Source: Marsupella aquatica (taxonomy: Eukaryota > Plantae > Marchantiophyta). Taken from it: a stretch of 64,000 bases of DNA. Positions 34,101-63,174 of this stretch are shown here, in pieces. The DNA lies in the NCBI GenBank assembly GCA_973895155.1, contig OZ316895.1, forward strand, positions 10,094,184 to 10,158,183. The letters run 5' to 3'. Within the stretch, counting starts at the first letter, position 1, and each line of letters starts with the position of its first letter. A model generated the notes under the pieces. It had not been told where the DNA came from. It ran no database searches and saw nothing but the letters and a program-made list of their open reading frames with translations. The position numbers and the translations under genes were made by a program.

Positions 34101-34616
34101 AAGAGCAGCAGTGTGCTTAAAACTTCCCTCCCTGCTTCTCTCTTGGCCTTTCGTCATCATCCCAACATTTGTTTTGTGTCGTGATCGTCGAGGTTCAATC
34201 AGCGGAAAACTCTACCCGATGACCAATCGCAGATCGTCTAGTGCTGCTCACTCCCTTCTTCGCGCCTCGTGCAAAGGCGTCGTCGTTCCATGTGTGCTGA
34301 TGAGTTTCTGCTTTATGCCCGTCGAAGCCGTGCCTGCAAGTTCGGCACCCCTTTCGAGCTAGGGACTGACTCACGGACTGGCGGACTGGACTGGACTGGA
34401 CCGGACTGGAACTCTAGGAGATATGGGAAGAGTGGTACTGAAGATGAGAAATCAGCAGCTGCACTGGAGTAGATGGGCCGTGCACATGTGAAGAGCTGCT
34501 GTGTCTACATGGCGTCCTTCCTCTCCAGCACATTGTAGGGTACGGTAATGCCTCTCGTGCTTCACGGAGAGATTTCGCTGGAATCGCTCTCCGCCACCTA
34601 CGAAACTTGATTGACA

Positions 34617-36200
34617 ATGGAGTCGGCCAGGTGGAGAAGAAACTCTTCCAATTCCTGTAGAATTTGCGTTTGGTTACTGTTTTTGCTTCTATCACCTTTG
34701 CTCTCGATCCGTCCCTCCTCGAATCATGTAGCGGAGGCCCGCTTGAATCCAGACATTGCGCAATTTGTAGCCAAGGTAGTTGAGGACTTTGAACAGGAAT
34801 CCTCTCTTCATGGTGGTCATGAACGGCAGCTTCTCGGGAAACCGAAGCAAGGACTGGAAGTGGAGCTGGTGCACAGGCACCATCCAAGCGTGTTGGGAGG
34901 GGAGAGAAAGTGGAAGGATGGCGAGCTCTTGGCAGATAGGATTCGCTCGGATATGCACAGGCAGTTGATGCAGAAGCAGCAGCTGCGTTCCAAGCTCTCC
35001 ACCTACTTTCCTCACTTAACGGGCAATGGTGCAAATGCAGGTAACTATCAGTTCGTGAGCCCTGTGGTCTCGGGCTCTGGGTTAGGATCTGGACAGTACT
35101 TCGTAGATTTCTACCTTGGGACGCCTCCCCAAAAGTTCTCTCTCATCGCCGACACTGGCAGTGATGTCATCTGGCTGCAATGCCTTCCTTGCATCTCGTG
35201 CTACTCGCAAATTGGCCCACTCTTCAGTCCAAAGGATTCGTCGACGTACAATGCGCTCTCTTGCAGTTCCGCCGAGTGCCAGTTTGTCCCTCCTCCCCTC
35301 AACGCAACTTGTGACCCGAAAAACCCTGTTGTGTGCGACTACCTCTATGCCTACAGCGATGGATCCGAAAGCATTGGAGTTTTCTCCACGGAGACCGCTA
35401 CCATGAATGTGTCGAAGGCGGGGAAGACTGTGAAAATCGACAATGTGGCTTTCGGCTGTGGGCAGCAAAACTCAGGCCCAAGCTTGACTGCGGCTGGAGG
35501 AATTATCGGTCTCGGGCAGGGTGTGCTCTCCTTCCCGTCGCAAATTGGCTCGTACTTTGGAAACCAGTTTTCTTACTGTCTGGTGAACTATCTCGACGCA
35601 CCGACTATCAGCAGCACTCTCGTCTTTGGCAATGTCGGGACCAAATCGAAACAACAGGCTCAGTCCACCCCATTCATCACTAACCAGTTCGTGCCATCTC
35701 TCTATTACGTAGGGATTCAGTGCCTCAGTGTGGGTGGGAACCGGCTGCCCATTCCATCTGAACTGTGGCAGATTAATTCGCTCGGTGTGGGCGGATCAAT
35801 CATCGATTCGGGCACGACCCTCACGATCTTTCTGCAGCCGGCTTACCTCATCATCCTGAATGCCTTCGCGTCTCAAATAAGTTGCTACCCTCGAGTCGCT
35901 CCTTCGCAAGGTCTGGACCTATGCTTCGACACTTCGTCTGCAGCCTCTGGCAATAAGATTTCGCATCTCCCTTCGCTGAGCATTACATTCGACAGCGGTG
36001 CGGTGTTCAGCCCGCCCAACGAAAACATTTATGTGCCAGTGGGCTCTGGTGTGAACACGTATTGTCTGGCGATGGCGGGATCAGTGGGACCATTCGGGTA
36101 CAATGTTTTGGGCAACTTGATTCAACAGAACTACGAGGTCACTTACGATCGGCAAAGTCAACTGTTTTCCTTCGCACCGGCTCAGTGTTCGTCCCATTAG
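34617..36200 (+). CDS. Secreted aspartic protease, A1B nepenthesin-like family (intronless), paralogue of 21560-23305
   Basis: First ATG at 34617. Signal-like hydrophobic stretch, VELVHRHHP, GSGQYF, DTGS, DSGT, FSYCL and VLGNLIQQNY. Confidence 0.96.
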   Translation: MESARWRRNSSNSCRICVWLLFLLLSPLLSIRPSSNHVAEARLNPDIAQFVAKVVEDFEQESSLHGGHERQLLGKPKQGLEVELVHRHHPSVLGGERKWKDGELLADRIRSDMHRQLMQKQQLRSKLSTYFPHLTGNGANAGNYQFVSPVVSGSGLGSGQYFVDFYLGTPPQKFSLIADTGSDVIWLQCLPCISCYSQIGPLFSPKDSSTYNALSCSSAECQFVPPPLNATCDPKNPVVCDYLYAYSDGSESIGVFSTETATMNVSKAGKTVKIDNVAFGCGQQNSGPSLTAAGGIIGLGQGVLSFPSQIGSYFGNQFSYCLVNYLDAPTISSTLVFGNVGTKSKQQAQSTPFITNQFVPSLYYVGIQCLSVGGNRLPIPSELWQINSLGVGGSIIDSGTTLTIFLQPAYLIILNAFASQISCYPRVAPSQGLDLCFDTSSAASGNKISHLPSLSITFDSGAVFSPPNENIYVPVGSGVNTYCLAMAGSVGPFGYNVLGNLIQQNYEVTYDRQSQLFSFAPAQCSSH

Positions 36201-43968: not shown

Positions 43969-44418
43969 TGGTGCGCAGGAGATTCGTTTCAGATGAACAT
44001 ATTGGTATCTGATTTTGGTTTGGTTTGCTTTGAAGTTTGTGGTCGTTAGGATCTCATCTCCCTTCGACACTTGGGGCACCCACCTCCGTGCCTCCGGGAA
44101 AATATTAAACAAGGAAGTGATGACTGAAGAATGCAAAATGACATACAGTCTTGGGGCGCTTTTTGATATCTACTTATACTACAGTGCATTATCATTCTAC
44201 ACGGTAAACTCTATCAATGTTTCCGCTCAAGCGACTTTTGATTGCCCATGTGGTCGCAAGCCGAGAAAACTGTTGCCAGATCATTAGGCTACTGTGCTTT
44301 GCAACGAAATTTGACGCCTGCACTAATTCTGCACTAGTTCCAGACTGCCGGGCCACAAGGAAATAAAGGGTGCAGGGTGCAAGGTGCAGGGTTGAAGAGT
44401 TGAGCTAAGGTAACAAAC

Positions 44419-44752
44419 CCACAGATTTGAGTGGTCAACATGACGATGAGAATGATTTGAAAGGGGATCTCCAATTCTCATCACCGTGTGTAGCAATTTC
44501 ATTCAAATTGTTTACAGCTACACCTCACAGATTTGAGTAGTGAACATGAAGATAAGAAATCAATGATTCGAAGGAGGATCTCCAAACCTGATCACTTGCA
44601 TAGCAATCTTATTGAAAAATTTCAACAGCTATACCTCACAGATTTGTGAGGTGAACATGAAGGTGAGAATGACTCAAAAGAGGATGTCCAAATCTCATTA
44701 CTCTGCATAGCAATTTGATTAAAAAAAAACTAACAGCTACACCTCACAGATG
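44419..44752. repeat. ~108-bp tandem repeat x3
   Basis: CACAGATTTG..GTGAACATGA..GAGAAT..ACAGCTACACCT units begin at about 44419, 44527 and 44637. Confidence 0.8.
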
Positions 44753-45626
44753 TGCGTAGATCTAGCTTGTGCCTGTCTCTGCCGAGAACATATCAAATGC
44801 GAAATTAAAGGTAAATTACCTCTCCTGTTAGATCCAGGTACATTTAATTTCGCATTTGATTTAACAGGAGAGGTAATTTACTTAATGCGAAATCAAAAGT
44901 AAGTTACCTCTCCTGTTAGATCATCTTCTGCTTATATCACACACGCTACCCATAATGTAGAGCTAGCTCTCAAACATCAAAACTCTTTTTTGCTTGCACT
45001 TTGCAACTCTCATAGCGTGTCCAGTTTCTAATCTTCAATGAATTATTCTGGGATACAACTCACTTAGCGTGCAGTACGTGAGTTAGGGAGGCTGAAGCCC
45101 TCTCCCATTCCTCTTGATAAAAATTGAAGCCTGCCCAAACTTCAGCTGCCTCTACCGTGCAAAACTTTGCCCTCCCAGGTCCTCTCATTTCTACTTTTTG
45201 TACCATAATCTCATTGGATGCCGGGTTTGAATCTCTTGTGCCTCCTTCCTAGTTGGATAGAACAAGTTCCCTTTCTTTCCCTTGCTGTCTTTCTTCATCC
45301 TGAGATTTGGACTGTCATGGAGGACCAAAATGTTGGAGACCTAATATCATTATGGGGCCATGGTTACACCAGATGATGTATAATGATTCCCCAAGGGAGC
45401 TTGTCCAACGACACTCATACTAGTAAGATGAATGCCTTGTTGAGTAGTATAGACATTTTTTATTTTCATCTCTCATGGAGGGCAAGGAAGGTTGTCTCGC
45501 ATTTCAGATTCAGTAATGGAAGCCATGCTTGTCACAATTGGATCACCTTTGAGCTGTGTTACCTTCATTTCATGAGTTTTTGTGTCTAGACCCTGTTTGT
45601 GTTCAAGTTGACCTGGGTAAGCATAT

Positions 45627-45661
45627 AACACAGTGACGGACCAAACGAGAAGTATGACCAC
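45627..45661 (+). repeat. Left terminal inverted repeat
   Basis: AACACAGTGACGGACCAAACGAGAAGTATGACCAC; the CCAAACGAGAAGT submotif is repeated directly afterwards. Confidence 0.92.
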
Positions 45662-46528
45662 CAAACGAGAAGTGTGTTTTCGATTTCGCAAAAACGGCGA
45701 AAAATCACTAAAATTAAGATCAAAAATGTTATTTTGAGGATGAATCCAAAATCGCATCCAACATCAGATTTCAAATCGAGATACTGTCGACACAAAAACA
45801 AAGAATTGTCACAATCCAGAATTCCGATACACTTCATCTAAAAAAAGTGCAAATTCCAAAACCTAGAAAAACAATGCTTTTCATGTGATCCTTCTAAAAG
45901 CTAAATCCGAGCGTCAAACAAAACGAATAAAACACAAGATTTCATTTTCGCCATCAAAATGGCAAACTGAAAATGAGATACGGCGTATCCCATTTCGGAT
46001 TCAACCGTTGAACGTGGACGAAAATCACACCAAATCATTCTCTTGACGCTTCCATTTAACCTCGGGTTAAAAATATTTGAATTTTTAACTGCGGTAAAAC
46101 CAAAAACTGCGAAAAACTGACCGCGGACTACAGTCGACCCACACAGTTAGTTAAGTTAACCCGACGACATGTCCGGAAAATTTTTAGCCCATAACGCATG
46201 ATGAATACGAGATGGGATCCAAGTATCCACTATCGTATTCAACCTCAATGTTTTCCACCTGCAACTTTGCATCAGGAGATCTTTTGACATGAATACCAAC
46301 TGAGATCCATGGATCCCATTTTTTTCGCAAGTCCAAAAACTCATCGGGAAAACAGGAGGATGAATACCATATGGGATCCATGGATCCCATCTAGTATTCA
46401 ACCTCTACATTTTGAAGTTTTTGCATTGCATACATTGATATTCCAGTTTGAAGACCAACTGGGATCCACAGCGACTTCCTCAAAAATCTACAATTTAAAT
46501 TTCAGCATTCTTTGAAAAGACAAACTCT

Positions 46529-46600
46529 CACGTGAAAAAACCCTCGTACGGACCAATCAGGGAATGCCACGTGTCCAATGCCCCCAAAAACTATAAAAGG
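46529..46600 (+). promoter_or_regulatory. Putative transposase promoter (two G-boxes, CCAAT boxes, TATA box)
   Basis: CACGTG at 46529 and 46568 (the latter in GCCACGTGTC), CCAAT at 46553 and 46575, TATAAAA at 46592, ATG at 46751. Confidence 0.5.
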
Positions 46601-46750
46601 AAGAGCTCGCATCTGTTTTTCATCTTCATTTCTCGCAATTACTTTGAGGTTCGTTCAGTATTGAGTAGTTGTTTTCATAGAATACTGTAATCTGAATTTT
46701 CTCTGTTGGATAGGAATACGTACTCCTATACAACCCTTGTTTGATTCTCT

Positions 46751-49700
46751 ATGGCGTCTTCAAGTGATGAGTCAATTTACAGTTCAGATGCATCTTCGCC
46801 AGATGTTGTTTGAAAATTTATTCCATCTCGTTTGATGAATGAATTACCAGCCTCACAGAGAGTAGTGCCAGAGATTTCATTTTCCTCAGAATCTGAGAAA
46901 TCAGAGTCTGATTCAGAGTCTTGTAGGAGTGTTGTGGGTGCTCCAATTTTATACTATGTCTCTCCAAGTAAACCTCTTAAACGACGTCTACTTGTAAAGA
47001 AGCCTAATGTAGTTCCTATGACAGAGACACTTGGTTCACCGCGAACCCCGACAGATCTTCAAAGACGAAGGCCTCGTTTTTTAATGCCAAGACAACTTTA
47101 CCATGTAGGCCCGCCTGAAGATCTCCGTTGGTTTTTCCAATGTCTCTTTCTCCGGGAGTGAAGATAGCTGTGTCCAGTGTTCAATCATAGTTTGAGCAAA
47201 TGAGGAGTCCAAATGTGCCGGAATTGCAGGGAGGGGCAGCCTCGGAGCCAAATTTGGTGGGTCGAATACCAAGTGGGATCCGTGGATCCCACTTGACCGT
47301 ATTCCCTACTTGAATGTTGAGAAATGGTGAACGCAAATTGCCTATTTTGTCTCCTTCAGTACCAAATTCCTTGAGTCAAATACAAAGTGGGGTCCATGGA
47401 TCCCACTTAGTATTCCCTTGTGGTATTTTGCAGAATCCTGTGCCCGAGTCACCGGTCTTGCGGACTTCCAACCCGAGTTCCAATGGTGGAATGCGAAATG
47501 GGATACGCGGATCCCAGTTCGTATTGCGCAACGGAAAATTACCAAGTCATGACGCAGAACAGCAAGTGGGAAAGTTTTCACTTCGAAGTCCCGAAGGACG
47601 AATACGAGTTGGGATCCATGGATCCCAATCGGTATTCCCATCAGTTATTTCACCGAGTGGTGAAACTAACAACAAGGGGCTTCGAAGCCCTTTGGCGAGG
47701 ATGCAGTGTGAGGTTTTTGGATCTTCCATTGGACGGCAAGTGCAGAACGAAAGAGGGAAGAGATCTAGTGTCCAGAAAATTCCTCGGAGATTATTGCGAA
47801 GTGAGCTGCCGAAGAGAGGGCCCAAAAATTCAAAGGTACATGCTAAATTGAGACTTGTCCAAAGATTATTCAATGGTCAAGATGAGCCCTCAAGTCGAGA
47901 AGAATCACCTAGGCTGGGATTACAGTCTCAAAGACAAGTGGGCGGTACTCCGACTGAAGATGTGAATATCATTAGAAGATTTCAAACTAGAAATCTCCGA
48001 ACACCTATTACATTTTCAGAAGACTCTGAAGAGAGATCAGAGGAGGCTGCAAATGACAGAGAGACTGTTGTAATCTCAAATGTTGTTGAAGAGATCCTGG
48101 GATGTGAGATTGTTCATGAAACAGTTACAGAAAATGTGGAGAGTGGAAACAACTCTATAGAAGATCTTTTTGTTTTAAATTCTAATTCACTAGAAAATAG
48201 TGGGGGGTAAGTTCTCCCGACACTATTCAGGATAGAGTAGAGGTGACAAGACCCAGCAAGAAAATCAGAGATCAGATGATTAGAAAAGATAGACTTACCA
48301 TTGCAAATCTAAAAAAATGCAAAATTAAAGATATTTTTAAGTATCCCTGTTGTGACAAGTTTTGTTTGAGATCTCTGGGTCTAGAGGAATGCTCAAAACA
48401 ACGCAAGTATTATTTTGGTCTTAAATACTTGCAAAAAAATATTTTGCTACAAGGTTGTATCATGAACAACTATAGTACTTCTCGTGGATATAGTGTAAAT
48501 GGACAACCTATATGTAGAGGAGGATTCAAGAAACTATATTCTTTAGGTAATAATAGATTGGCAACAATCCATGCAAACATGTTTACAAGGATTGAACGAG
48601 ATACCTTTTGTAAGGAAGACTCACTTTCATTTCTAAACTTGGTGGAATGGTTGAAAGATTTTTTCCAAAAAAATATGGATAGTCTTCCCTATAAAGAGAT
48701 TCATCATTTGCCAGACAATTGGACAAAGCAAGAGATACACGGAATCTTTGAAGCTGAAACAATGTTGCAAGAAGAACAAGTTACATATTCTTATTTTTTG
48801 CGTGTTTGGAAAAAAAGTTTCCAAATGTACGAATTTCTAAAAGGAGTCGATTTTCTACTTGTGGTCCTTGTACTGAATTCAAGGCTCTTCGGGACAAAAC
48901 AATAACTGAAGAGGATAAAAGTAAGTTCCACTAACTATAACCTTCAACTTTAATTTGATGACATGTAATTCAATATTTGTCAAATTTATCCTTAGTTATT
49001 GATTTTTAATTCATTGCTATTGTATCATTTCAAGAAAGTACATCAATGCCCTTATGGAGCATCGAAAAGTACAATCATTGGAAAGGATGAAGTTAGCCAA
49101 GCATCCTAAAAAATGCTATGATGAGCCCAACAAGTATTTGGGTATTTGTATAGATGGTATGGATCAAAAGAAAACAGAGCTACCACATTTTCTTCGTTGT
49201 CCAAAGAACATGGATGAAAAATATTTCATTCCAATACATGTTGTAGGTTGTCTCATCTTCAACAGAAACATTGCAGCAAAAGTATTTTTGACATATCCCA
49301 ATATCCATAATGATGCAAACTTGACCATATATGTTATTCAAAATGTATTGAATACATGGGATGAGACATTACCAAGAGTGTTATATCTTCAATTAGATAA
49401 TACCACTAGGGAAAACAAGAATAAATTCTTGATGGCTTACCTTCACATGTTAGTAGATTTGAAGATTTTTGACAAGATTAAATTAAAGTGGGTTTCTTGT
49501 TGGTCGGTCATACACATGACCAGATAGATCAGATGTTTAGTAAATTTTCGCCTAGGTTAAACAAGCACAAAGCATTTCGCTTGGAGACTCTCGAGGATAT
49601 TATTCGACAAGCATATTCACTTGAAGCTTTGATCATATTTGTGGATGAAGTAGCCAATTTTCAAAAATTTGTCAATGAAAATGACCAGCCAAATGAGAAG

Positions 49701-50639
49701 GGAGTCTTAGGTAGAGTCTTGAGAGATCTCAATCTCATAACTTTTCAAAGGCAATTCAGATTCAAACGAGTCATGGAGGATGGAAACGAAGAGACAACAT
49801 TTCACGGGAAACATCTTTCCATGACCCAGGATTGGGGAGATGCAGTGACGTTCGTCAATTACATTCCAACTTCAAGAATGTGGGTTGCTGCACAAATGTC
49901 ACTAAAGTCAGCAAAAGGTGTTGAGAGAGATGATGTCCATGATTCTTCCAATACAGATGGTGCATTAACTACTCTGGTGAGATATGAAAAAGCTATCCAG
50001 GAAGGTTTCAATTACTTTGACAATGAAGATAAACTTTGGTGGATGAGTTTTTTTGAGAAACAAAAAGATATTATCAAAAACCACCTAGAGGAAGGTGAGT
50101 GGCTATTGGAGTGGGTTTGGCCGCAACAAAATCAAGGTGCACAACTACTTCCAAGGGTGAGAAATGAACTTGTTGAAGAAGGTGTTGATCCAACTTTGGT
50201 TGACAAAGTTGCTAGACCACAGAGAATTATGTACTTCAGACCTCGACAAAAGCAAGCTGAATTTGGATATTTCAGAGATATGGAAGTTAACAATAAGTGG
50301 TCCATGATATGTGTAGCGGCACACAAGGATCCAGAAGGCAAGTTGTTTTGGATGGCAAAGGTGTCAAAGATTTTGACAAGAACTGCAGACATTCTTGAGA
50401 GAATCAAAATCACATGGTACACAACTGAGGCAAGTGCTGAGTCTGCTATTGATGGGAAATATTTTCCAAAGAAAGATAATATATCTAATCGACTTCTCCA
50501 AGATGAACTAGTTCTATCATCAACAACGGTGTATGCATACAACTTTGCGCTTTTAAGTACTAATCAAATAGTAGCAAAAACTAAAAAAATTATAGAGTCT
50601 GCTATATTAGAGCGAGGTTCTGCACACTCAGAGGATTGA
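46751..50639 (+). pseudogene. Sola-like DDD transposase (frameshifted, with in-frame stops)
   Basis: Cys motifs CCDKFC, ICRGGFKKLY and FSTCGPC (after a frameshift near 48815). Predicted intron 48921-49034. Catalytic-core motifs CIDGMDQ, LYLQLDNTTRENKN and GFLLVGHTHDQIDQMFS. C-terminal FWMAKV..ITWY beta-rich domain. The structure upstream of 48243 is uncertain. Confidence 0.82.
47264..47638. repeat. Array of four ~38-bp palindromes at ~112-bp spacing with dissimilar spacers
   Basis: Cores at about 47275, 47389, 47500 and 47611 (GGGATCCATGGATCCC type). Confidence 0.85.
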
Positions 50640-50779
50640 GATTGATGTCCTTAAACAGGTACATGCATCAATTTTAAAATTTGATCTCGAATGAATTTTC
50701 TAAGGTTACATGCTCTTTTACAATTGTACCATTTTTCGGTAAATAAAGACTGTGCATCAAGGCATTGTGTAATATGCCA

Positions 50780-51564
50780 TTAAATTCTGATTTTGTCCAT
50801 ATTTTGAAGAACAAATAGACCACAATCTGAATTGTTTGGTTGTTGAGGTACTTGAGAAAGAATCTTAAAGTTAGTCCAAAGTGCTTAATAAAATTTTGAA
50901 CTAAATAAAAGTTGAAATAATTTTTCAAATCCTTACCATTGGATTGTAAATCTCCACAACTCCCATTGGAACTTTTCCAAAAAATAATTCTCATTCCATT
51001 GTAAAATATCTGCAAATTATCATTCAAAGTTCTTAGTCCAAAGTGTTTATATTTATGTACCACATAAATAAATTCAAATTGAAAAAATGTAATAGAATAT
51101 ATATGTACCTGCTCAGTATTGATCCAATTACATGGGTTGAGTATAGACCGGCGAGAGAGTCTAGATGATACATTTTGATCGAAGATTCAATCCGATCCAA
51201 ACATATTACAACCAGACTCCAATGCATGCTCATGTGAATTGGCATGAGAATGACCTCAATTTGGGAAAATGGTGGCTTGTAATAATTTTGCATCTTTTGA
51301 ATTGATTCCAACAAGGTCTCAGCTGGTTCTGTTTCAATCCTTGAAACAAGCCAAGGGTAAAAAAAAAGGATAATGTGTTTACTGAGGGAGCCAGATCTCC
51401 ATGTTCCTCGGTTATTAATTGTGAGTAAAATTCCATTATTTCATCACCCAAATATTGACCGGGTTCAAGTTGGCTCAATGTTTTATTGTCCAAAAGAAAC
51501 CCACTAGAAGGATTGTGTGAGAATCTATGCAAAACATGTTTCAATACAAATCCTCCTTTGGTTC
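50780..51564 (-). pseudogene. Ulp1/SENP-type (peptidase C48) cysteine protease domain, spliced and frameshifted
   Basis: YLGDEIMEFY, ILMPIHMSMHWSLVVI (His) and YHLDSL (Asp). After two small predicted introns comes VPQQPNNSDCGLFV (Gln/Cys; ~50810-50850, not in the ORF track). Confidence 0.85.
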
Positions 51565-51676
51565 CTGCAAAGACATTACTTTATGAAATAAGAACATAGT
51601 GCAATCATAATCTTCCTCAATATTGAACAAGTTTGGATCAATAGATACAACATGAGAGAACTAATCAAACTAAAGT

Positions 51677-52793
51677 CTACACCTCAAGGAATGAGCCAAG
51701 ATCAAGTGCCGGAGCTTCATGTTCCACTTCATCCCCCGCTTCATCCTCATCATTGACGTTCTCCTCTGCGATTGTAATGATGCAAGTTCCAGTGGTGAGG
51801 GTGCTCGTAGTACCACCAATAGGTGGTTGAACCTTGAAGCTCATGGGTCCTGTACCCTCCTTTGTTGCTTCATCATTCAAGTCCCACGATTCATCCAGCG
51901 TGACAAGTCGGGTCTGGATACAATCCACCTGGCTTGAACTGAGCTCCACGGCTATCACCAGACGTTTCCTAACAAGGCAGCGCATGAGGTTGAACCACTC
52001 CCCGCACATAAATCAGCAACCCAATCCCCTGCTTCACTAAAATGTTGAATGAACCAATCTGCTAGAGCTATCGGCTTCTGGTAAGGGTTCACTATTTCCC
52101 CCAATGGTGTGACACATTTCTTTGTAACACAAGGGACTTTTATGATGTTTACCCTTTTCTCATCATGTTCAAAATTGTACATGTCTCTGGTCCTAATACC
52201 ACTCTCGTGATAATATCTGATTGACCAGTTTTCAAAAGCCCAAGCCAATCGATTCCCAAAAGGATGAGCATGTACATTTGGCTTCTCCCAAATTCCAGTC
52301 TCTACACCTGCATTACAAGTTTACTTTTTCCCAGAGCATTCATCACAGACCAAGTTTGCTGCAAAGAGTGAATCACAACAAACCTCCACATCTTTGAACG
52401 TGTCACCTTGGCCAAACACTTCACCATATTCATAATATCACTGTCTGAAAATGGGACCTCATCATTTTCAGAGCCAGGTGCATTGAATCCATAAGGAATG
52501 TCTGCAATTGCAAGTGTGTAATTCCTTTTCTCTACAAACTTATCTAGCGCCCTGACATCTCCACAATGCAATGTATATCTGATGAAATTTCCATCAGCGT
52601 TTTTCCATCGATGGTCACTCGACTCTGCTTCAACCATTTCAATCCCACGACGACGGTTGTAGTTCTCAATCGCTTCTTGAACATAATTCTTAAACCTCGG
52701 GGGAATAACACTTGAAGTCAGCTCCTCCGAAGGCTTCTCAACCGCATCGGCACCAATTGCATCCTTGTTCTTCTTCTTCGAAAAAGCTTTCAA
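51677..52793 (-). pseudogene. Beta-class N6-adenine/N4-cytosine DNA methyltransferase domain (exon of the ParB-MTase gene)
   Basis: LHCGDV, LAIADIPYG (motif IV variant), GIWEKPN, PYQKPIALADWFIQHFSEAGDWVADLCAGSGSTSCAA (motifs X and I), then RLVIAVELS. Frameshifts near 52325 and 51970. Motif order IV then X-I indicates the beta permutation. Confidence 0.85.
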
Positions 52794-52875
52794 CTGCAAA
52801 CGCAAACTTGTTAAAAGAATCCGGAGAAAAGACAATTGGAAGAACCATTTAGGCATTCAAACAATCAAATCTGGA

Positions 52876-53192
52876 CAACAAATGCGACATGGGATACCCC
52901 GTATCCCACTTTGCATTCAGCCAAGCAAAAACCCCATTGGAACATCACCTACGTCAAATAAACATAGTTGAATCCGAGATGAGATACCCCGTATCCCATT
53001 TTGCATTCAACCAAGCAAAAACCACATTGAAACATCACCAACATCAAATAACCACAAGTCAATCCGAGATGGGATACCGCGTATCCTACTTCGCATTCGA
53101 CCAAGCAAAAACCACATTGAAACATCACCAAAGTCAAATAACCACAAGTGAATCCGAGATGGGATACGCTGTATCCAACTACGCATTCAAAC
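52876..53192. repeat. 90-bp-period palindrome array inside predicted intron 52794-53298
   Basis: GGGATAC-N3-GTATCCC-type cores at 52891, 52981, 53071 and 53161. Confidence 0.9.
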
Positions 53193-53298
53193 AAGAATTC
53201 CAGGAAGGAAACCACCCAAATTGTTAAAACCATATAAGATTAGTTGACCATTTGAGAAACAAATAGAAAAGTCCAATCAATGCAAGGGGAGAACATAC

Positions 53299-55253
53299 CA
53301 CATCGGACAACTTCCCACTCCATCTTTCGAGCTCGGCAGATTCTGTTTCTTTCGGAAACATTTGTTTGCAAGTCGCCCAGTCTGGCTGCCCTGACAACTG
53401 AACAAAAAGCTTGTTGATTTTCACAAGTTTCTTGTAACTCTCGGCTTCTTTTGCCATCTGCTCCAAAGAGATCATCCGGTCCTTCACTCATAGAAGAAGG
53501 GACTCAAAAAATTGGTCGTGTTCAATTCCCTGGATTGCTCTCCAAGGTGTCAGGGTAAGGCCCCCTGCAAGCTTATTCAAAGCTTTTGGAATCGACTGCG
53601 CTTTTCCTTTTTTCTTGAGTTTCTTGATCGGTGACTTCTGCTTATTCTGCCCTTTGATCTCCAACTTGTTCCACATATCAAAGATCTGGTCTTGGAGTTC
53701 CCAAACCTTACCCGACCTGAACGCAATTTGGAAGAGAGGTTCATGCTTCTTCAGGCTTGTGGTGTCCCCCGGAAAAAACCCGTCGAGGCAAACCTCCATT
53801 GCACACTCTTCTCTAGTCTCCTTGGTTTTTGCCATACCTCTGGCAAGGAAAATCTTATGCATTGTTCGGATTTGATCAATGTTGTTCATTTTTTTCCTAT
53901 ACTCCTGATCAATATTATGTTGGATGCTAAGTTTTTGAATGTCCTCCCTTGTGAGACTAGCATACACCCAAGCTTGAAGTTCATTGAAGATCTCTCTCCC
54001 ATAAGCCTGATACAATTCTCTCTTAGCCCGAGCACCATGATTACCTCCAATCACTCGATATCTCCAGCTTGTTGCCTTTTCTGGGTCCCAGTCTGTCACT
54101 GTCGGGCAGTCTTCGGGGATCACAAACAAGACAAATGGGGTGGTGAAATTTGTTGGATTCATTTTCATCAAAGTCTTGATGTTCTCCACATGCAACCGAT
54201 CTACTGTTCGAACCAACGTTGAGTTCTCGTCATCAATATCTCCAACAAGAAGCAGGTTAGTTGTTTTCAGAATAACAGTTGTCTTCTGAACTCTCTTGGT
54301 CTCCATCAACCGAGACACTTCTTCGCGAACCACAAGTGTCTCTTCCCACTGCAAAGCTGTGGTGATATCTGTTGAATGGTTTTTCTTCTATTTCACAGCT
54401 CCCCTAGATGATAGAGAAGGCCCACTTGACGAAGTTGAAGGAATCTGAGACGGTGTCTGTGAAATTGGTGGGACCAAAGATGAGACAACACTTTCGGGTG
54501 CAGATGGTGCGCGCTTCTGGATGTCACGTCGATCTAGTTTCTTCTTGCCAGCAGCTTCTCCTGACACCACTGCTTTAGAACCTTCCCCGGAGAGATGATC
54601 TGCAAGCTTCCTCTTTGCCGGTTCCTTAAAAGAAATTGTGGCAGATTTCTCCTTTGTCAAGGGTGTTCCAGACATCTCCCCTGACTTTGAAGTCGGATTG
54701 GTAGGCTTCGTCACTTTCAACTTCAGAGGACGCTCTTTGACGCCAAAGTCGGCTCCAACGATGGACCTATATGTTACCTTGGTAAAATCCTCAACAACCC
54801 TCCAAGACTTCAAGACAAATTTGAAACACCAATAAGAAAAGTCCTCAATCTCCGGCACTTCCAAAATTAGCTTGCAGATCGGGTCATCAGGAAATGTGTT
54901 CATCGAGACCCGATCGAGTTTCTCGTAGTTGAGGACAACTACAGTGAAGGCATTGTTTGGAAGAATGCAAAGGTACATTGGAATCTTCTTCAGCTGTTTG
55001 GTTTTTGTGTCGGTGATATCTACCTCCCCAATGTCCACGACTAATCCATAATGGCAATGGTCTTTACCCTTAACTATAACCAACCACACCGCTGGACCGT
55101 CATAGGCTTTGTGAATATCCATCGCCCGGGCATCCCTGAAGTACCACCTATTCCTCACGAGTTTCTCCTTGGTGTAACCTTCTTCCAAATCTCATCAATG
55201 ATGGATGTCCGTGAAGACTCAGTCAAACCAAACTACTTTGATTTGTTCGACAT
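53299..55253 (-). pseudogene. ParB/Srx-like domain protein, copy A; large exon predicted to splice in frame to the MTase exon
   Basis: LVRTVDRLHVENIK...PFVLFV...YRVIGGNHGARA...LSIQHNIDQEYR. ORFs 54388-55188, 53488-54354 and 53224-53487 share one frame, split by TAG and TGA. Donor GTATG at 53298 and acceptor TTTGCAG at 52794, phase 0. Confidence 0.72.
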
Positions 55254-55302
55254 GTTCCTGCAAAAGATTGATACATAGAACCAGGGCGTAAACATACAAA
55301 AG

Positions 55303-56035
55303 TAGTTGAATGCGAGATCGGATACGCGGTATCCCACTTTGTATCCAACATCACCAATTCCCGAGTCTGATGCAAAGAACGAAAAAGAGGGAGTTGAATG
55401 CGAAATGGGATATGCGGTATCCCACTTCGCATCCAACATCAACAATTGCCAAGAGTCTGATGCAAAGAACGAAAAATAGGGAGTTGAATGCGAAATGGGA
55501 TACGCGGTATCCCACTTCGCATCCAACATCAACAATTGCCGAGAGTCTGATGCAAAGAACGAAAAATAGGGAGTTGAATGCGAAATGGGATACGCGGAAT
55601 CCCACTTCGCATCCAACATTGACAATTGCCGAGAATCTGATGCAAAGAACAAAAAATAGGGAGTTGAATGCGAAATGGGATACGGGGTATCCCGGTTCAT
55701 ATCCAACATCATCCAATGTGGCTCTTCTTGCAATGATCCTCCGCAACGACCCTAAACCCTAAACATCAGGAATTTCTAGTACTCTGCAATAAAAGACCAA
55801 AGAGATGTAGTTGAATCCGAAATGGGATACGCGGTATCCCATTTTGTATTCAAAGTCAACGAACAGCCACGAGGTTCTGATGGAATACTAAAATGAGGGT
55901 GTTGGATGCAAGATGGGATACGCGGTATCCCATCTCGTATTCAACATTGAAAAGTTCTGTTATTCGAACATAAGGGCAAAGAATAGAGAGTTGAATGCAA
56001 AGGAGGATATGGCGTATCCCACTCAGGATTCAATA
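55303..56035. repeat. Palindrome array (90-bp units) in the predicted 5'-UTR intron of copy A
   Basis: 45-bp hairpin GTTGAATGCGAAATGGGATAC-GCG-GTATCCCACTTCGCATCCAAC. Cores at about 55319, 55407, 55497, 55587, 55677, 55824, 55915 and 56004. Confidence 0.92.
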
Positions 56036-56201
56036 ATGAAGTGCGCCAAGGAAGGGAGAGTTTCTTGAGGTTTTACCTGTTTTTTTGTTTCGATTCGAGC
56101 AAATACAAAAAACTATAGAGATGTTGCAGCCCAAGAAAAACGCGAAGGCAAGCCAAGTTGAGAAGGAAAAGAAATGAGCGTAAACTTTCTGACCAAGCAC
56201 T

Positions 56202-56211
56202 CCTATTTATA
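56202..56211 (-). promoter_or_regulatory. Putative TATA box of the ParB-MTase gene (equivalents near 60625 and 62791)
   Basis: TATAAATAGG on -, about 125 bp upstream of a CAG|GTAAAA donor at 56077. Confidence 0.45.
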
Positions 56212-56532
56212 CTTTATCACCTTTGTATCCATAGGCAATAAGGTGTATCCAAAAGCGGAGGGTTGGAGTCCGAAGGTCTATTTATACTTTTTTTGCTTGA
56301 TAGGACTTTGTTTCTGACTAGATTTAGATTAGGCATATCCCCACGTCCTTGGATTTAACCAAATAGATTTTACGCGTAGCAAATGGGGTTGATGCAAGGG
56401 TAGAATCACAAAACTCTTTATTCATCCGGAATTGTGCTCAAAATAAACTCAGTTGATATTCTTAAAAAGAGTCTTTACAAAGAGCCCATTCAAGATGAGT
56501 AGTCCAAAACATGAAGGACTCTAAACCGGACT

Positions 56533-57072
56533 CTAAGCTTCCCCATACATTTCCAAGAGCCTTGCTTGCTCATCTTTCTCAAGATTGTGCCAGTCTTCTT
56601 GAAATCGATTTAGGTCAGACCTTGAAAATAAACCTAAGAAATTGATTGGAAGAAGATTTGGTGTTTCCATCCTAAGAAAAGCTTCAATATGAACATTCTG
56701 AAGGGGTTTTCCATCGGGAATGCTTGTCAGCATTTCATTTACTTCCTCAAACTGGCTTCTTGCTAGTCTAAGAATACCCCAGAGTCGTGTACAAATTACG
56801 AGTTGGTTCCATTTCTTGGAGGTGCATCCAAGCCACACCATTGTTTTTAATCGCATCAATCTTTCATCAGCTAGGGTCTTGGATGAACCAAATTCATCCT
56901 CTATACAACAAACTTTCAAAATGGGCCAAATGAACGTTTCAACAATCTCATCAGGAAATCCATCCAAAAGCAATCCAGATTCCTTTTGGCCACTTTTTTG
57001 TTGAATTTGTTTCATCTCTTTGTCGAATGACATCGCTAACCTTGTAAAGACAGGGTTCTTAGTGACGGCCAT
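56533..57072 (-). CDS. F-box-like protein (transposon cargo, copy A, open frame)
   Basis: LLDGFPDEIVETFIWP ... WLGCTSKKWNQLV resembles the F-box pattern LPDEI...L.CVSK.W with an insertion. Confidence 0.5.
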   Translation of the reverse strand: MAVTKNPVFTRLAMSFDKEMKQIQQKSGQKESGLLLDGFPDEIVETFIWPILKVCCIEDEFGSSKTLADERLMRLKTMVWLGCTSKKWNQLVICTRLWGILRLARSQFEEVNEMLTSIPDGKPLQNVHIEAFLRMETPNLLPINFLGLFSRSDLNRFQEDWHNLEKDEQARLLEMYGEA

Positions 57073-57248
57073 TCCAAAATAAGAGTGGATACCTGGAGTA
57101 ATAAATGATATGGTGAGCTCTTTATCAGAAACCTACAAAACAGTGATGGAAAAACTGATTTTATTTCTTTGATCAAAAGAAAAATATATTCACAAAATTT
57201 TTGATCCAAGAACGTTCACCTAAACACTTACACACTAATCAAGAAGAT

Positions 57249-57636
57249 TCAACGCGATAAGTTAACCCAAGGATCTTCGTTCCAAATCCGACAACACAAA
57301 TATGCCAATCGATGATATTTGTTTTGGGCATCACGACAATAATTACAAGAAGAATTAACAGAGTGTAGACAACCACTCAAACATATCCTCGACCGAATCG
57401 GAACTCCGTCTTCATTTTTCACAAAACTCTATTCGGAGTGGATTCAAACTATCATGTGGATCCACGCCTCCCGTCCATAGCGCTCCTAATCCAGGACGGA
57501 GAACTTTGAGTGCAACTAATCGCTTATACAATCGATGAGCACGTTTCTCACGATTTTGATTCTGGATTGCCATTAGACTCACAAGAGAAAACGTCATTTT
57601 TCCACGAAAGCAAAAGCTTGAGTCGGTGTCAATCAC
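57249..57636 (-). pseudogene. Small Cys-rich ORF of unknown function, copy A (frameshifted)
   Basis: Homologous to 61675-62007 but broken near 57412. Confidence 0.35.
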
Positions 57637-58035
57637 TGAAAGGCAGCAAGAGCTTCAGTGCGTGTTTAGTTGAACTTTGCCTGCAAAACAATCAGCAATC
57701 CATAAGGTTTTTCCCATGCCAAAAAATCTCTAGGGAGATACCACTTTGGATACCCCATATCCCACTTCGCATTCGACCAAGCAAAAACCATATTGAAACA
57801 TCACAAACGTAAAATAACCACAAGTGAATAAGAGATGGGATACCGCGTATCCCAATTCGCATTCAACCAAGCAAAAAACCACATTGAAACATCACCAACA
57901 TCAAATAAGCACAAGTGAATCCGAGATGGGATACCCCGTATCCCACTTTGCATTCCAACAAGAAATCCATGAAGAAAACCTCCGAACATGGCAAAACAAA
58001 TAGAAAAGTCCAATCAATGGAAGGGGAGAACATAC

Positions 58036-59996
58036 CACATCGGACAATTTCCCACTCCATCTTTCAAGCTTGGCAGATTCTGTTTCTTTCGGAAACATTT
58101 GTTTGCAAGTCACCCAGTCTAGCTGCCCTGACAACTGAACAAAAAGCTTGCTGATTTTCACAAGTTTCTTGTAACTCTCGGTTTCTTTTGCCATCTGCTC
58201 CAAAGAGATCATCCGGTCCTTCACTCGCAGAAGAAGGGACTCCAAAAATCGGTCGTGTTCAATTCCCTGGATTGCTCTTCAAGGTGTCAGGGTAAGGCCC
58301 CCTGCAAGCTTATTCAAAGCTTTTGGAATCGACTGCGCTTTTCCCTTTCCTTTCTTGAGTTTCTTGATCGGTGACTTCTGCTTATTCTGCCCTTTGATCT
58401 CCAACTTGTTCCACATCTCAAAGATCTGGTCTTGGAGTTCCCAAACCTTACCCAACCTAAGCGTAGTTTGGAAGAGAGGCTCATGCTTCTTCAGGCTTGT
58501 GGCGTCCCCCGGAAAAATCCCGTCGAGGCAAACCTCCATTGCACACGCTTCTCTAGTCTCCTTGGGTTTTGCCATACCTCTGGCAAGGAAAATCTTATGC
58601 ATTGTTCGGATTTGATCGATGTTGTTCATTTTTTTCCTGTACTCCTGATCAATATTATGTTGGATGCTAAGTTTCTGAATGTCCTCCCTTGTGAGACCAG
58701 TATACACCCAAGCTTGGAGTTCATTGAAGATCTCTCTCCCATAAGCCTGATACAATTCTCTCTTAGCCCGAGCACCGTGATTACCTCCAATCACTCGATA
58801 TCTCCAGCTTGTTGCCTTTTCTGGGTCCCAGTCTGTCACTGTCGGGCAGTCTTCGGGGATCACAAACAAGACAAATGGCGTCGTGAAATTTTTCGGATTC
58901 ATTTTCATCAAAGTCTTGATGTTCTCCACATGCAACCGATCGACTGTTCGAACCAACGTTGAGTTCTTGTCGTCAATATCGTCAACAAGAAGCAGGTTAG
59001 TTGTTTTCAGAATAACTGTTATCTTCTGAACTCGCTTGGTCTCCATCAATCGAGACACTTCTTCACGAACCACAAGTGTCTCTTCCCGCTGCAAAGCTGT
59101 GGTGATATCTGTTGAATCGTTTTTCTTTTCTTTAACAGCTCCCCTAGATGATAAAGAAGGCCCACCTGACGAAGTTGAAGGAATCTGAGACGGTGTCTAT
59201 GAAATTGGTGGGACCAAAGATGAGACAACACTTCCGAGTGCAGAAGGCGCGCGCTTCTAGATGTCCCGTCGATCCAATTTCTTCTTGCCAATAGCTTCTC
59301 CTGACACCGCTACTTTCAAACCTTCCCCGAAGAGTTGATCTGCAAGCTTCCTCTTTGCCGGTTCCTTAAAAGAAATTGTGGTAGATTTCTCCTTTGTCGA
59401 GGGTGTTCCAGACATCTCCCCTGACTTTGAAGTCGGATTGGTAGGCTTCGTCACTTTCAACTTCAAAGGCCGCTCTTTGACGCCAAAGTCGGCTCCAACA
59501 ATGGACCTATATGCTACCTTGGTAAAATCCTCAACAACCCTCCAAGACTTCAAGACAAATTTCAAACACCAATAAGAAAATTCCTCAATCTCCGGCACTT
59601 CCAAAATTAGCTTGCAGATCGGGTCATCAGGAAATATGTTCATCGAGACACGATCAAGTTTCTCGTAGTTGAGGACAACTACAGTGAAGGCATTGTTTGG
59701 AAGAATGCAAAGGTACATTGGAATCTTCTTCAGCTGTTTGTTTTTGAGTCGGTGATATCCGCCTCCCCAGTGTCCACGACTAATCCATAATGGCAATGGT
59801 CTTTACCCTTAACTATAACCAACCACACCGCTGGACCTTCATAGGCTCTGTGAATATCCATCGCCCGGGCATCCCTGAAGTACCACCTATTCCTCACGAG
59901 TTTCTCCTTCGTGTAAAGGTCCTTCTTCCAAATCTCATCGACAATGGATGTCCGTGAAGATTGGGTCAAACCAGACAACTTTGATTTGTTCGACAT
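58036..59996 (-). pseudogene. ParB/Srx-like exon, copy B (no downstream MTase exon of its own)
   Basis: Paralogue of 53299-55253, starting MSNKSKL at 59996. Stops at 59257 and 58279 and a frameshift near 59740. Confidence 0.72.
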
Positions 59997-60061
59997 GATC
60001 CTGAAAAAGATTGACACACTTAGAACCAGACCAAATTTTGAGCGTAAACATTCAAAAGAAG

Positions 60062-60456
60062 TAGTTGAATGTGGGATCGGATACGCGGTATCCCACTTCG
60101 CATCCAACATCAACAATTGCCTAGAGTCTGATGCAAAGAACGAAAAAGAGGGAGTTGAATGTGAAATGGGATACGCGGTATCCCACTTCGCATCCAACAT
60201 CAACAATTGCCTGGAGTCTGATCAATGCAATGAACGAAAAAGAGGGAGTTGAATGCGAAATGGGATACGTGGTATCCCATTTCATATTCAAATTCAACAA
60301 ACAACGAGGAGGTTCGGATGAAAGACTAAAAAGAGGGTGTTGGATGCGAGATGGGATACGCGGTATCCCATCTCGTATTCAACATTGAAAAGAAGGCCAA
60401 AGAATGGAGAGTTGAATACAAAGGGGGATACGTCGTATCCCACTCAGGATTCAACA
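60062..60456. repeat. Palindrome array, copy B
   Basis: Cores at about 60078, 60168, 60262, 60353 and 60425. Confidence 0.9.
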
Positions 60457-60947
60457 ATGAAGTGCGCCAAGGAGGGGAGAGTTTCTTGAGTTTTTACCTA
60501 TGTTTTTGTTTCGATTCGAGCAAATACGAAAAGCTATAGAGATGTTGCGGCCCGAGAAAAATGCAAAGGCAAGTGAAGTTGAGAAAAAAAAAAGAAATGA
60601 GCGTAAACTTTCTGACCAGGCACTCCTATTTATACTTTATCACCTTTGTATCCATAGGCAATAAGGTTTCCACAGGCGATAATGTGGATCCAAAAGCGTA
60701 GGGTTGGAGTCCGGTGGTCTATTTATAATGTTTTCTCTTGATAGGACTTTGCTTATGACTAGAGATAAGGCATATCCTCAAGTCCTTGTATTAAACCAAA
60801 TAGATTTTACGCGTTGATCCAAGGGTAATCACAAAACTCTTTATTCATCCAGAATTGTGCCACAAAATAAACTAAGTTGATATTCTTAAAAAGAGTTTAC
60901 AAAGAGCCCATTCAAGATGAGCAGTCCAAAACATAAATGGAAGGGCT

Positions 60948-61498
60948 CTAAACCAGACTAGAAGTTTCTCCATACATTTCCAAGAGCCTCGCTTGCTCAT
61001 CTTTCTCAAGATTGTGCCAGTCTTCTTGAAATCGATTTAGGTCAGACCTTGAAAATAAACCTAAGAAATCGATTGGAGGAAGATTCGGTGTTTCCATCCT
61101 AACAAAAGCTTCAATATGAATATTCTGAAGGGGTTTTCCATCGGGAATGCTTGTCAGCATTTCATTTACTTCCTCAAACTGGCTTTTTGCTAGTCTAAGA
61201 ATACCCCAGAGTCGTGTACAAATTACGAGTTGGTTCCATTTCTTGGAGGTGCATCCAAGCCACACCATTGTTTTAATCGCATCAATCTTTCATCAGCTTG
61301 GTTCTTGGAGGAATCAAATTCATCCTCTATACAACAAACTTTCAAAATGGGCCAAATGAACGTTTCAACAATCTCATCAGGAAGTCCATCCAAAAGCAAT
61401 TCGGATTCCCTTTGGCCACTTTTTTGTTGAATTTGTTTCTTCTCTTTGTTGAATGACATCGCTAACCTTGTAAAGATAGGGTTCTCAGTGACGGCCAT
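60948..61498 (-). pseudogene. F-box-like ORF, copy B (frameshift near 61272)
   Basis: LLDGLPDEIVETFIWP and WLGCTSKKW fall in two different frames. Confidence 0.5.
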
Positions 61499-61674
61499 TC
61501 CAAAATAAGAGTGGATACCTGGAGTAATAAATGATATGGTGAGCTCTTTCTTAGCAACCTACAAAACAGTGATGGAAAAACTGATTTTATTTCTTTGATC
61601 AAAAGAAAAATATATTCACAAAATGTTTGACCCAAGAACGTTCACCTAAACACTTACACACTAATCAAGAAGAT

Positions 61675-62007
61675 TCAACGCGATAAGTTAACCCAAGGAT
61701 CTTCATTCCAAATCCAACAACACAAATATGCCAATCGATGATATTTGTTTTGGGCATCACGACAATAATTACAAGAAGAATTAACAGAGTGCAGACAACC
61801 ACTCAAATATATCCTCGACCGAATCGGAACTCCTTCATTTTTTTCACAAAACTCTATTCGAAGTGGACTCAAACTATCATGTGGATCCATGCCCCCCGTC
61901 CATAGCGCGCCTAATCCAGGACAAAGAACTTCGAGTGCAACTAATCGCTTATACAATCGACGAGCACATTTCTCATGGTTTTGATTCTGGACCGCCATTA
62001 GACTCAC
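61675..62007 (-). CDS. Small Cys-rich hypothetical protein (cargo, copy B)
   Basis: 110-aa ORF with C-x2-C (CNYC) plus other Cys/His residues, conserved with copy A. Confidence 0.35.
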   Translation of the reverse strand: MSLMAVQNQNHEKCARRLYKRLVALEVLCPGLGALWTGGMDPHDSLSPLRIEFCEKNEGVPIRSRIYLSGCLHSVNSSCNYCRDAQNKYHRLAYLCCWIWNEDPWVNLSR

Positions 62008-62170
62008 AAGAGAAAACTTTGTTTTTCAAGGAAAGCTTAAGCTTGAGTCGGTGTCGGTCACTGAAAGGCAGCAAGAGCTTCAGTGTGTGTTTAGTTGAAC
62101 TTCGCCTGCGAAACAATCAGCAATCCATAAGGTTTTTCCCATCATCAAAAAAACTCTAGGTAAATACCAC

Positions 62171-62640
62171 ATGGGATACCCCGTATCCCACTTTGCATCC
62201 AACCTCCGTTTTTAGCTAAAGAGAAATCAAAATTGGACATTTGAAGAGTGAATCCCAAACGGGATACGCCGTATCCCATTTCGCATTCAACGTTGAGGTT
62301 TTGACATTTGGAGTCTAAGATGCTTCATATTCGGAGGTTGGATGCGACATGGGATACCCCGTATCCCATTTCGCATCCAACCTCCTTTTTTAGGTAAAGA
62401 GAAATCAAAACTGGACATTTGAAGGGTGAATCCCAAACGGGATACGCCGTATCCCATTTCGCATTCAAAGTTGAGGTTTTGACATTTGGAGTCTAAGATA
62501 CTTCATATTTGGAGGTTGGATGCGATATGGGATACCCCGTATCCCACTTCGCATCCAACCTCCTTTTTTAGCCAAAGTGAAATGAAAACTGGACATTTGA
62601 AGGTTGAATCCCAAACGGGATACGGCGTATCCCATTTGGG
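62171..62640. repeat. Palindrome array with alternating spacers (178-bp higher-order repeat)
   Basis: Cores at about 62173, 62261, 62351, 62438, 62529 and 62617; spacers alternate A/B. Confidence 0.9.
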
Positions 62641-63112
62641 ATTTGTCCTCGCCATTTTCAGGAAGATTCTCACCTGTTAGTCAAAACTGATTTTTGGCGA
62701 ATACGAGTTTGTATAGACGGTGTGCATTCGTCGAGAGTAAGAGTATACAGAGCGAGAAAAAATGAGCGGAAAATTCTCAAGCGGTGATCTCCTATTTATA
62801 GTTTTCTCTCTGACCGTGGTTAGTATTTGACTGCAGTTGCATCGTAGTCGGTTAAATGTTACCGTTGAGAAGAATCGTTTTGGAATATTCTTGTCGGGTA
62901 AACCAATATCTGCAATTTTACTGCGTTTGTTTTTGGTTTTTTGAATTCCGCGGTTGGATCCAAAATGGGATACGCCGTATCCCATCTTCGTATTCATGTC
63001 GATTTTTCCCATTTTTTCAATTCAAAAAACTAGTTTTTAGGGGGAATACTAATTCCGTATCCAAGACTTTTTTGCCTTAGAAACATTTTTCGCCGCGGGC
63101 AAAATGAGAAGT

Positions 63113-63147
63113 GTGGCCACACTTCTCGTTTGGTCCGTCACTGTGTT
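63113..63147 (-). repeat. Right terminal inverted repeat
   Basis: GTGGCCACACTTCTCGTTTGGTCCGTCACTGTGTT, overlapping the local palindrome GAGAAGTGTGG|CCACACTTCTC. Confidence 0.92.
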
Positions 63148-63174
63148 ATATGCGCATTTCAACCTATCTAACGT

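Follow-up and report, generated by a model that had tools for sequence, protein, structure and literature searches.

A multi-copy Sola1-like transposon of Marsupella aquatica with a ParB-methyltransferase gene and palindromic candidate binding sites

A 64,000-nt stretch of the Marsupella aquatica genome (Marchantiophyta; GenBank assembly GCA_973895155.1, contig OZ316895.1, forward-strand positions 10,094,184 to 10,158,183; hereafter the window, to which all coordinates refer) contains a 17.5-kb DNA transposon at 45627–63147. Public reads confirmed that it belongs to a multi-copy land-plant family of cut-and-paste transposons, in which the Ulp1 protease and methyltransferase cargo is a family trait. 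The copy itself is dead and internally duplicated, and its Sola1-like transposase gene is accompanied by an antisense gene for a ParB-methyltransferase fusion. The element holds 35 palindromes, which are likely candidate sites bound by this protein to regulate the element. We put at about even the chance that the ParB-methylase of the family binds its own palindromic arrays and keeps the element's genes transcribed, probably via an N6-adenine mark.

Termini and target site

The terminal inverted repeats (TIRs) proposed in the preliminary description were recovered at both ends. The left TIR (45627..45661, + strand) begins with AACAC, and the right TIR (63113..63147, − strand) ends with GTGTT. 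The outer 27 nt are identical at both ends, 6 of the next 8 positions match, and the overall match is 33/35. A 25-nt TIR pattern occurred twice in the window, compared with 0 occurrences expected by shuffling.

The flanks are palindromic themselves, the inverted match extending 6 nt outward past the TIRs, so the terminus could not be fixed from the window alone and was fixed by read contigs. Six public read runs were used (best share 0.49; no RNA run was listed among them), and ends were examined in runs X1, X3, X5 and X6. Loose contig ends with unlike flanks before 45627 were found in 12 contigs of X1 and 22 of X6 (agreement 0.41–0.44). Behind 63147, contigs departed in 8 (X1), 19 (X3), 9 (X5) and 4 (X6) cases, the biggest right-end group listed for each run, and smaller groups departed at 63148–63153. 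Because contigs with unlike flanks diverge at 45627 and 63147, the terminus is AACAC...GTGTT, and the target site duplication (TSD) of this copy is most simply ATAT (45623..45626 and 63148..63151). Termini at 45628 or 45629, with a TA or TATA TSD or with CAC termini like those of CACTA and Transib, were rejected, as agreement among the contigs reaches 63147 and breaks down beyond it, and CAC termini leave no TSD.

When TSD lengths of 2–10 were tried at these ends, only AT (2 bp) and ATAT (4 bp) fitted. The 4-bp duplication suggested earlier is thus compatible with the ends, and the 2-bp one fits equally. AWWT targets are regarded as a Sola1 hallmark (PMC3845634), and this copy agrees with that pattern. 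However, the first flank base was not A in the largest contig group of every run (8, 19, 9 and 4 contigs). The family therefore also uses targets other than AWWT, and the AWWT rule cited in the preliminary description does not fit it. The flank consensus was TATA, CATA and TATA in three runs and self-complementary over 4 bp, the flanks of other copies being read one side at a time. No empty site appeared among the contig rows listed at both ends, where both junctions of this copy lack a formal bridge (the left piece has only 24 letters within the element, and depth is 0 at 63160–63169), which is no evidence either way.

Two observations concern the surroundings of the ends. Five X3 contigs share their flank through 63153 and then diverge, a hint that palindromic targets resembling GCATATGC may be preferred. 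Close to the left end of the element, the stretch 44399–44760 outside it consists of three to four tandem units, each about 106–111 bp long.

Transposase gene

The transposase gene (46751..50639, + strand) is broken by several frameshifts. The Pfam scan gave matches above cut-off to DUF7869, Peptidase_C48 and N6_N4_Mtase in 4 of the 16 open reading frames (ORFs) scanned, with E values for DUF7869 of 3.5e-25 and 6.1e-15. From a predicted ATG at 46751, the gene runs through a Cys-rich N-terminal part (48201–48905) and a predicted intron to a catalytic core (49003–49800) with the motifs DGMDQ, LDN and HDQID, followed by a C-terminal domain to 50639. These three Asp motifs are conserved among plant and animal relatives. 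A total of 104 relatives passed; the plant ones with names are from Adiantum (60%), Riccia (53–56%) and Ginkgo (47%), followed by marine invertebrates. The DUF7869 matches and the Asp motifs bear out the earlier call of a Sola-like DDD transposase.

Positions 5–30 of a published Sola1 hidden Markov model read DLQ..L.P..YYKRK at the first Asp, versus DGMDQ..ELPH here in a comparison by eye. Because of this unlike motif, the transposase appears to form at least a distinct subclade relative to that model. The likeness to a Sola1 element of Ectocarpus in termini and layout (see below) favours placement in Sola1. The AWWT misfit does not exclude it, since the TSD of the curated Sola1-1_Ec32 is described, in the part of the report available, as biased to end in A and hence also departs from AWWT (PMC12477816).

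The C-terminal domain at 50283–50636, with an FW.AKV...I.W motif, is kept in plant and animal relatives. It had no Pfam match and by eye resembles a Tudor/PWWP/BAH-type barrel. In a Branchiostoma lanceolatum protein (P0069), a DUF7869 transposase and a Ulp1/C48 fragment are annotated together, which suggests a link between Ulp1 and Sola in animals.

Family status in public reads

Read depth in the left 8 kb rose from 58–66 in the flank to 582–9,967 inside the element in X1 and from 84–252 to 3,727–31,600 in X3; this summed depth is not a copy number and was taken as a sign of many diverged copies only. In both runs, high depth continued unbroken through the transposase, Ulp1 and methylase genes (1,410 contigs in X1 and 2,760 in X3). 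The Ulp1 bins reached 1,615–4,937 in X1 and 3,727–8,143 in X3, and low Ulp1 depth in run X6 was not counted as absence. Since the depth jump runs across the transposase and both cargo genes, the cargo belongs to the family and not to this copy alone, as had been proposed. One X6 contig joins the transposase of a relative (49814) straight to the TIR (45627), indicating an element inserted in the transposase of another copy.

ParB-methyltransferase gene

The antisense gene (− strand) has a predicted 5'-untranslated-region (UTR) intron (55258..56076) that holds 8 type-A palindromes, with TATA-like boxes at 56204 and 56279. The exon at 53299..55253 contains premature stops and encodes an N-terminal region of unknown fold, a low-complexity linker, a ParB/Srx-fold domain (about 53900–54330) and a helical domain. 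Across a predicted phase-0 intron (52794..53298), which carries 4 type-A palindromes at 90-bp spacing, it is connected to the methyltransferase exon (51677..52793), which has two frameshifts.

The methyltransferase exon matched Pfam N6_N4_Mtase (E 2.7e-7). Its motif IV (DIPY) precedes motif I (DLCAGSG), QKP is present, and the Gly-rich loop for S-adenosylmethionine (SAM) is kept, which is the order of beta-class amino-methyltransferases (PF01555). In 95 aligned stretches, motif IV has Asp in 89, Pro in 89 and Tyr in 82, and the QKP motif occurs in 92/106. Sequence matches in PDB were weak (M.RsrI and N4CMT, E 0.002–0.004), and phage methylase families were also matched. Five close relatives share 65–73% identity. 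A further 72 metagenome loci were not used, because mostly only a 40-residue SAM-binding stretch matched, at 40–53% identity.

The ParB-like region had no Pfam match in the scan of window ORFs. Its structural model (predicted local distance difference test, pLDDT, 80; 16 sequences) retrieved Noc, ParB and KorB in Foldseek with E values of 1e-4 to 1e-3, all top 10 rows being ParB-family proteins, and VIA Z scores were 9.8 for PadC and 8.6 for KorB. The modelled product is thus predicted to have a ParB/Srx fold followed by a helical domain. Among the methylase relatives, 17/155 match the ParB region of the window in the same protein (E<0.01), including four Chara braunii proteins and one from Ginkgo among 10 looked up by name. 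The fusion is independently supported by these relatives. When homologs of the ParB region were sought in longer proteins, 0 of 2,210 candidates passed. With the fold matches, the PF01555 match and the fusion in relatives, the ParB-like and amino-methyltransferase gene of the preliminary description holds up.

Two regions of this protein drew separate attention. The N-terminal region at 54800–55250 looks beta-rich and shows a synonymous excess (15/38 vs 9.8, P 0.04), and neither Pfam nor the set of methylase relatives contained a match to it. For the ParB-fold region at 53491–54330, the top Atlas match is a DUF3723 cluster (0.96). DUF3723 is a conserved gene of fungal Starships, which may carry a relative of the ParB fold.

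Palindromic repeats

The palindromes comprise 28 of type A (GGATAC-N3-GTATCC core within a palindrome of about 41 bp) and 7 of type B (GGATCC cores). All 35 lie inside the element, with none in the other 46.5 kb of the window. As many as 26 of the 28 type-A copies lie in predicted introns, or in their duplicate, downstream of TATA-like boxes. The remaining cores are placed singly near the left end (45975..45991) and the right end (62967..62983). Some of the type-B copies (46214..47626) precede the transposase gene and others fall in its 5' portion, with a TATA-like box at 46592.

Internal duplication, decay and selection

About 4.5 kb of the element is duplicated (about 52983–57778 vs 57749–62204; 87–91% identical). 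The second, diverged copy (57749..62204) contains the ParB exon, arrays of 3 + 5 palindromes and the Cys/F-box-like gene, without the methylase exon. Removing the duplication leaves 13,065 bp, in line with the earlier estimate of about 13 kb. Frameshifts or stops disrupt all of the genes of this copy, and indels at several of the same break sites, including those of the transposase, are carried by other copies in the read contigs.

Between the halves, the ParB exon has a dN/dS (ratio of nonsynonymous to synonymous divergence) of 0.31, and 21 of its 47 changes are synonymous, where shuffling matched for context predicts 13.4 (P 0.0095). The same shuffle test gave no selection signal in the Cys part. 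Recombination between two family members is the likely origin of the duplication, and these members had probably drifted apart at a time when the ParB gene still worked. Transitions between the halves affect 24% of CG, 12.5% of CHG and 3.6% of CHH sites, which reads as the pattern of plant 5-methylcytosine (5mC) silencing. In the terminal 430–960 bp, the observed/expected CpG ratio is 1.15–1.46, compared with a host median of 0.57 (3/90 windows at least 1.0).

Ulp1, Cys-rich and F-box-like genes

The Ulp1/C48 protease gene (50790..51580, − strand) is frameshifted and has a predicted intron; it may use its own ATG or be spliced onto the methylase. The Peptidase_C48 (PF02902) match (E 2.6e-8), together with the His, Asp and Cys motifs in the translation (HW, LDS and SDCG), agrees with the earlier identification of this protease.

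A predicted two-exon gene (copy A, 56533..57573, − strand) joins the Cys-rich and F-box-like ORFs by an in-frame GT-AG splice. Its F-box-like part matched weakly (Pfam E 0.19, below cut-off; Atlas 0.82, a lead only), so the earlier F-box-like label stands as a lead. The Cys-rich ORF was present as described and had no database match. Because the in-frame splice can join the two, it probably forms the first exon of the F-box-like gene and not a gene of its own. A predicted 5'-UTR intron of the Cys/F-box-like gene (62106..62673, − strand) contains 6 type-A palindromes, with a TATA-like box at 62793.

Relation to known systems

The core design is already published for Sola1-1_Ec32 (PMC12477816) and for Plavaka elements (10.1101/2025.02.11.637652), as far as these sources were available, so the core of the system cannot be called undescribed. 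Sola1-1_Ec32 of the brown alga Ectocarpus is reported in the accessible text as a 21,549-bp element with AACCG-CGGTT termini, a 4-bp TSD and Sola1-1_PPa of Physcomitrella as best blastp match, encoding an antisense 1104-aa ParB and N4C/N6A methylase protein whose proposed role is to bind its own element and to modify it (PMC12477816). The element described here is likewise a giant Sola1-like transposon with AAC...GTT termini (AACAC-GTGTT), a TSD that is most simply 4 bp and an antisense ParB and methylase gene. It differs in its land-plant host and in its TIR of about 35 bp, compared with 282 bp, imperfect, in the alga. Compared by description rather than by sequence, the available account of Sola1-1_Ec32 mentions no Ulp1, F-box or palindrome arrays.

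Plavaka (EnSpm) transposons of the red alga Bostrychia are 17–19 kb long and, in the part of the preprint available, carry a PF01555 methylase (PAG2) and a ParB-like protein (PAG3) beside tandem inverted-repeat arrays proposed to be bound by PAG3 (10.1101/2025.02.11.637652). They resemble the Marsupella element in combining accessory methylase, ParB-like protein and inverted-repeat arrays on a large DNA transposon. In contrast, their transposase belongs to another superfamily, ParB and the methylase belong to two different genes, joined to a 2-oxoglutarate oxygenase and to SET, respectively, and the accessible text mentions no Ulp1.

The VANDAL/VANC and KAONASHI Mutator-like elements (MULEs) of Arabidopsis encode, according to the excerpts available, an accessory protein that binds short tandem motifs in introns or non-coding parts of its own family, and they carry Ulp1 cargo (PMC5735166, PMC13317346). 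Tandem intronic motifs and Ulp1 cargo are thus shared with these plant DNA transposons. In the same excerpts, they differ by a Mutator transposase, non-TIR ends and motifs of 8–9 bp, compared with 41-bp palindromes here, and VANC acts by loss of 5mC without ParB or methylase. No MULE or VANC-related family was among the Pfam matches of the window ORFs, and the analogy to VANC is one of function only.

DAM-carrying retrotransposons place prokaryote-derived adenine methylases on eukaryotic transposable elements, with raised N6-methyladenine (6mA) and transcription, and DAM long-terminal-repeat elements are stated to be absent from Streptophyta (10.64898/2026.05.21.726589, partial text). The present element shares a prokaryote-derived amino-methylase domain with them. 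As described there, they are retroelements whose DAM domains have an NPP core, whereas the domain here is beta-class PF01555 with ParB. Marchantia DN4MT1 and bdelloid N4CMT are beta-class bacterial-type amino-methylases with an SPPY motif that make N4-methylcytosine (4mC), again according to partial texts (10.1101/2021.02.12.428880, PMC8885841). They belong to the same beta class, and N4CMT structures were among the weak PDB sequence matches (E 0.003–0.004). Unlike these host genes with SPPY, as they are described, the methylase here has D-x-P-Y, is fused to ParB and lies on a transposon. The reference for green algae is reportedly Iyer 2011. Iyer 2016 mentions, in the part available, algal methylases linked to ParB as well as phage loci that combine ParB and terminase.

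In the literature searched, which largely lacked subscription journals and Repbase, no land-plant ParB-methylase transposon was found, and neither Ulp1 or F-box-like genes on such an element nor the specific palindrome was found there. The land-plant host, the added Ulp1 and F-box-like genes and the defined candidate palindrome thus appear to be new, the core design being known from algae.

Proposed function and alternative explanations

In the function proposed at the outset, the transposase would mobilise the element, and a ParB dimer would recognise the 41-bp palindrome through the helical domain behind the ParB fold. ParB, Noc and KorB bind inverted-repeat sites in this way. For the antisense genes, the sites occupy predicted introns that closely follow the TATA-like boxes, and other sites surround the promoter of the transposase; from this position we infer that binding would regulate transcription and not strand transfer. 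The methylase would write an N6-adenine mark at the arrays. This base, rather than N4-cytosine, is suggested by the Asp in motif IV, whereas the Marchantia and bdelloid 4mC enzymes have SPPY. Ulp1 and the F-box-like protein may remove the SUMO/ubiquitin signals that serve in silencing, or divert them. This proposal is supported by the like design published in algae with the same proposed role, and VANC provides a precedent for a transposon protein that binds intronic tandem motifs.

A number of results weigh against the proposal. The motif IV of the methylase, DIPY, departs from the canonical [DNS]PP[YF], and DPPY occurs in 8/95 stretches; the fold model of the methylase reached a pLDDT of only 33 (8 sequences). 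The canonical Arg-rich CTPase motif of ParB is GxxRxxA, and the signature here is GGNHG (GGNH, GGGH or GGTH in relatives). CpG transitions are more frequent in arrays and promoter (22/59) than in coding parts (27/139; P 0.011), to which selection on coding parts may contribute. The arrays were thus not spared 5mC decay, and their protection is not supported. The reads were compared with the left 8 kb and the right end, outside which the ParB and F-box-like parts lie, and the linkage of TIR to cargo in other copies is inferred from depth over contig pieces of at most 768 nt. The F-box-like part shows no selection signal between the halves (5/21 synonymous vs 5.5 expected). Finally, streptophytes are said, in the available part of the source, to lack abundant genomic 6mA (10.64898/2026.05.21.726589), which places a host reader of the mark in doubt.

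We consider it doubtful that the family has a complete private read-write system, in which the ParB-methylase would clamp the 41-bp palindromes and write 6mA or 4mC in introns and promoters, and the SUMO protease and F-box-like protein would disarm silencing. Such a system, with relatives from Chara to Ginkgo, would be a second plant anti-silencing system beside VANC and mechanistically unrelated to it.

Alternatively, the ParB fusion may bind the arrays with a catalytically weak or dead methylase, serving as a KorB/Noc-like autoregulatory repressor or scaffold that limits or times the element's genes. The second position of motif IV is a non-canonical I, V, A, F or L in 87/95 stretches, KorB and Noc are among the best fold matches, the arrays are unprotected against CpG decay, and Iyer et al., in the text available, judged DIRS-encoded methylase domains to be likely inactive. 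However, the Asp, Pro and Tyr of motif IV, the QKP motif and the SAM loop are strongly conserved in distant relatives. In addition, the second residue of motif IV contributes a main-chain carbonyl, and Erm and KsgA are active amino-methylases with N-[IL]-P-Y. On balance, we regard loss of catalysis as possible but unlikely.

A role of the palindromes as subterminal-type transposase-binding sites for end synapsis, with the ParB-methylase, Ulp1 and F-box-like proteins acting elsewhere (target choice, RNA or host chromatin), seems quite improbable. Many TIR elements have subterminal binding repeats; here, single palindromes are placed about 350 bp inside the left end and about 165 bp inside the right one, and the promoter of the transposase is flanked by arrays. 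However, most copies are kilobases from the ends, in predicted introns of the ParB-methylase gene, and ParB-type proteins are textbook binders of spaced inverted repeats. The pairing of ParB and arrays is also reported, in the part of the preprint available, on the unrelated transposase family of Plavaka (10.1101/2025.02.11.637652).

A plain Sola element that on one occasion received unrelated repeats or pseudogenes of the host, as nested or Pack-type cargo that does nothing for it, is very improbable, because the broken genes, the lack of a long contig tying TIRs to cargo in another copy and the F-box-like gene without selection signal are outweighed by the high depth that two runs show without a break from the TIR across the transposase, Ulp1 and methylase genes, the presence of palindromes in both transposase and cargo halves and nowhere else in the window, the divergence of the ParB halves under purifying selection, and the Sola1 plus antisense ParB-methylase layout also described for Ectocarpus (PMC12477816, in part).

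VANC is stated to be the only transposon protein shown to modify its own element (10.1101/2025.02.11.637652, partial text), and self-marking by the algal ParB-methylase accessory genes is so far a proposal. The Marsupella family offers many copies and a precise candidate site that recurs 35 times, and both Chara and Ginkgo have relatives of it. If binding and marking by its ParB-methylase are true, land plants would have a non-5mC DNA mark of transposon origin, and possibly a programmable site-specific methylase; if they are false, ParB-methylase domains would be recast as pseudo-enzyme regulators.

Other features of the window

Outside the element, a broken Copia-type retrotransposon pol fragment (RVT_2) lies at 695–2942. 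At 21494–23305 and 34611–36200 there are two genes for plant aspartic proteases (TAXi_N/TAXi_C), both without introns and apparently intact. The region 28786–31200 contains a Helitron-like Pif1 helicase fragment (30220–30771) beside short tandem repeats. A 280-bp inverted repeat pair with 94% identity (4238–4517 and 5648–5926) possibly represents a small foldback element.

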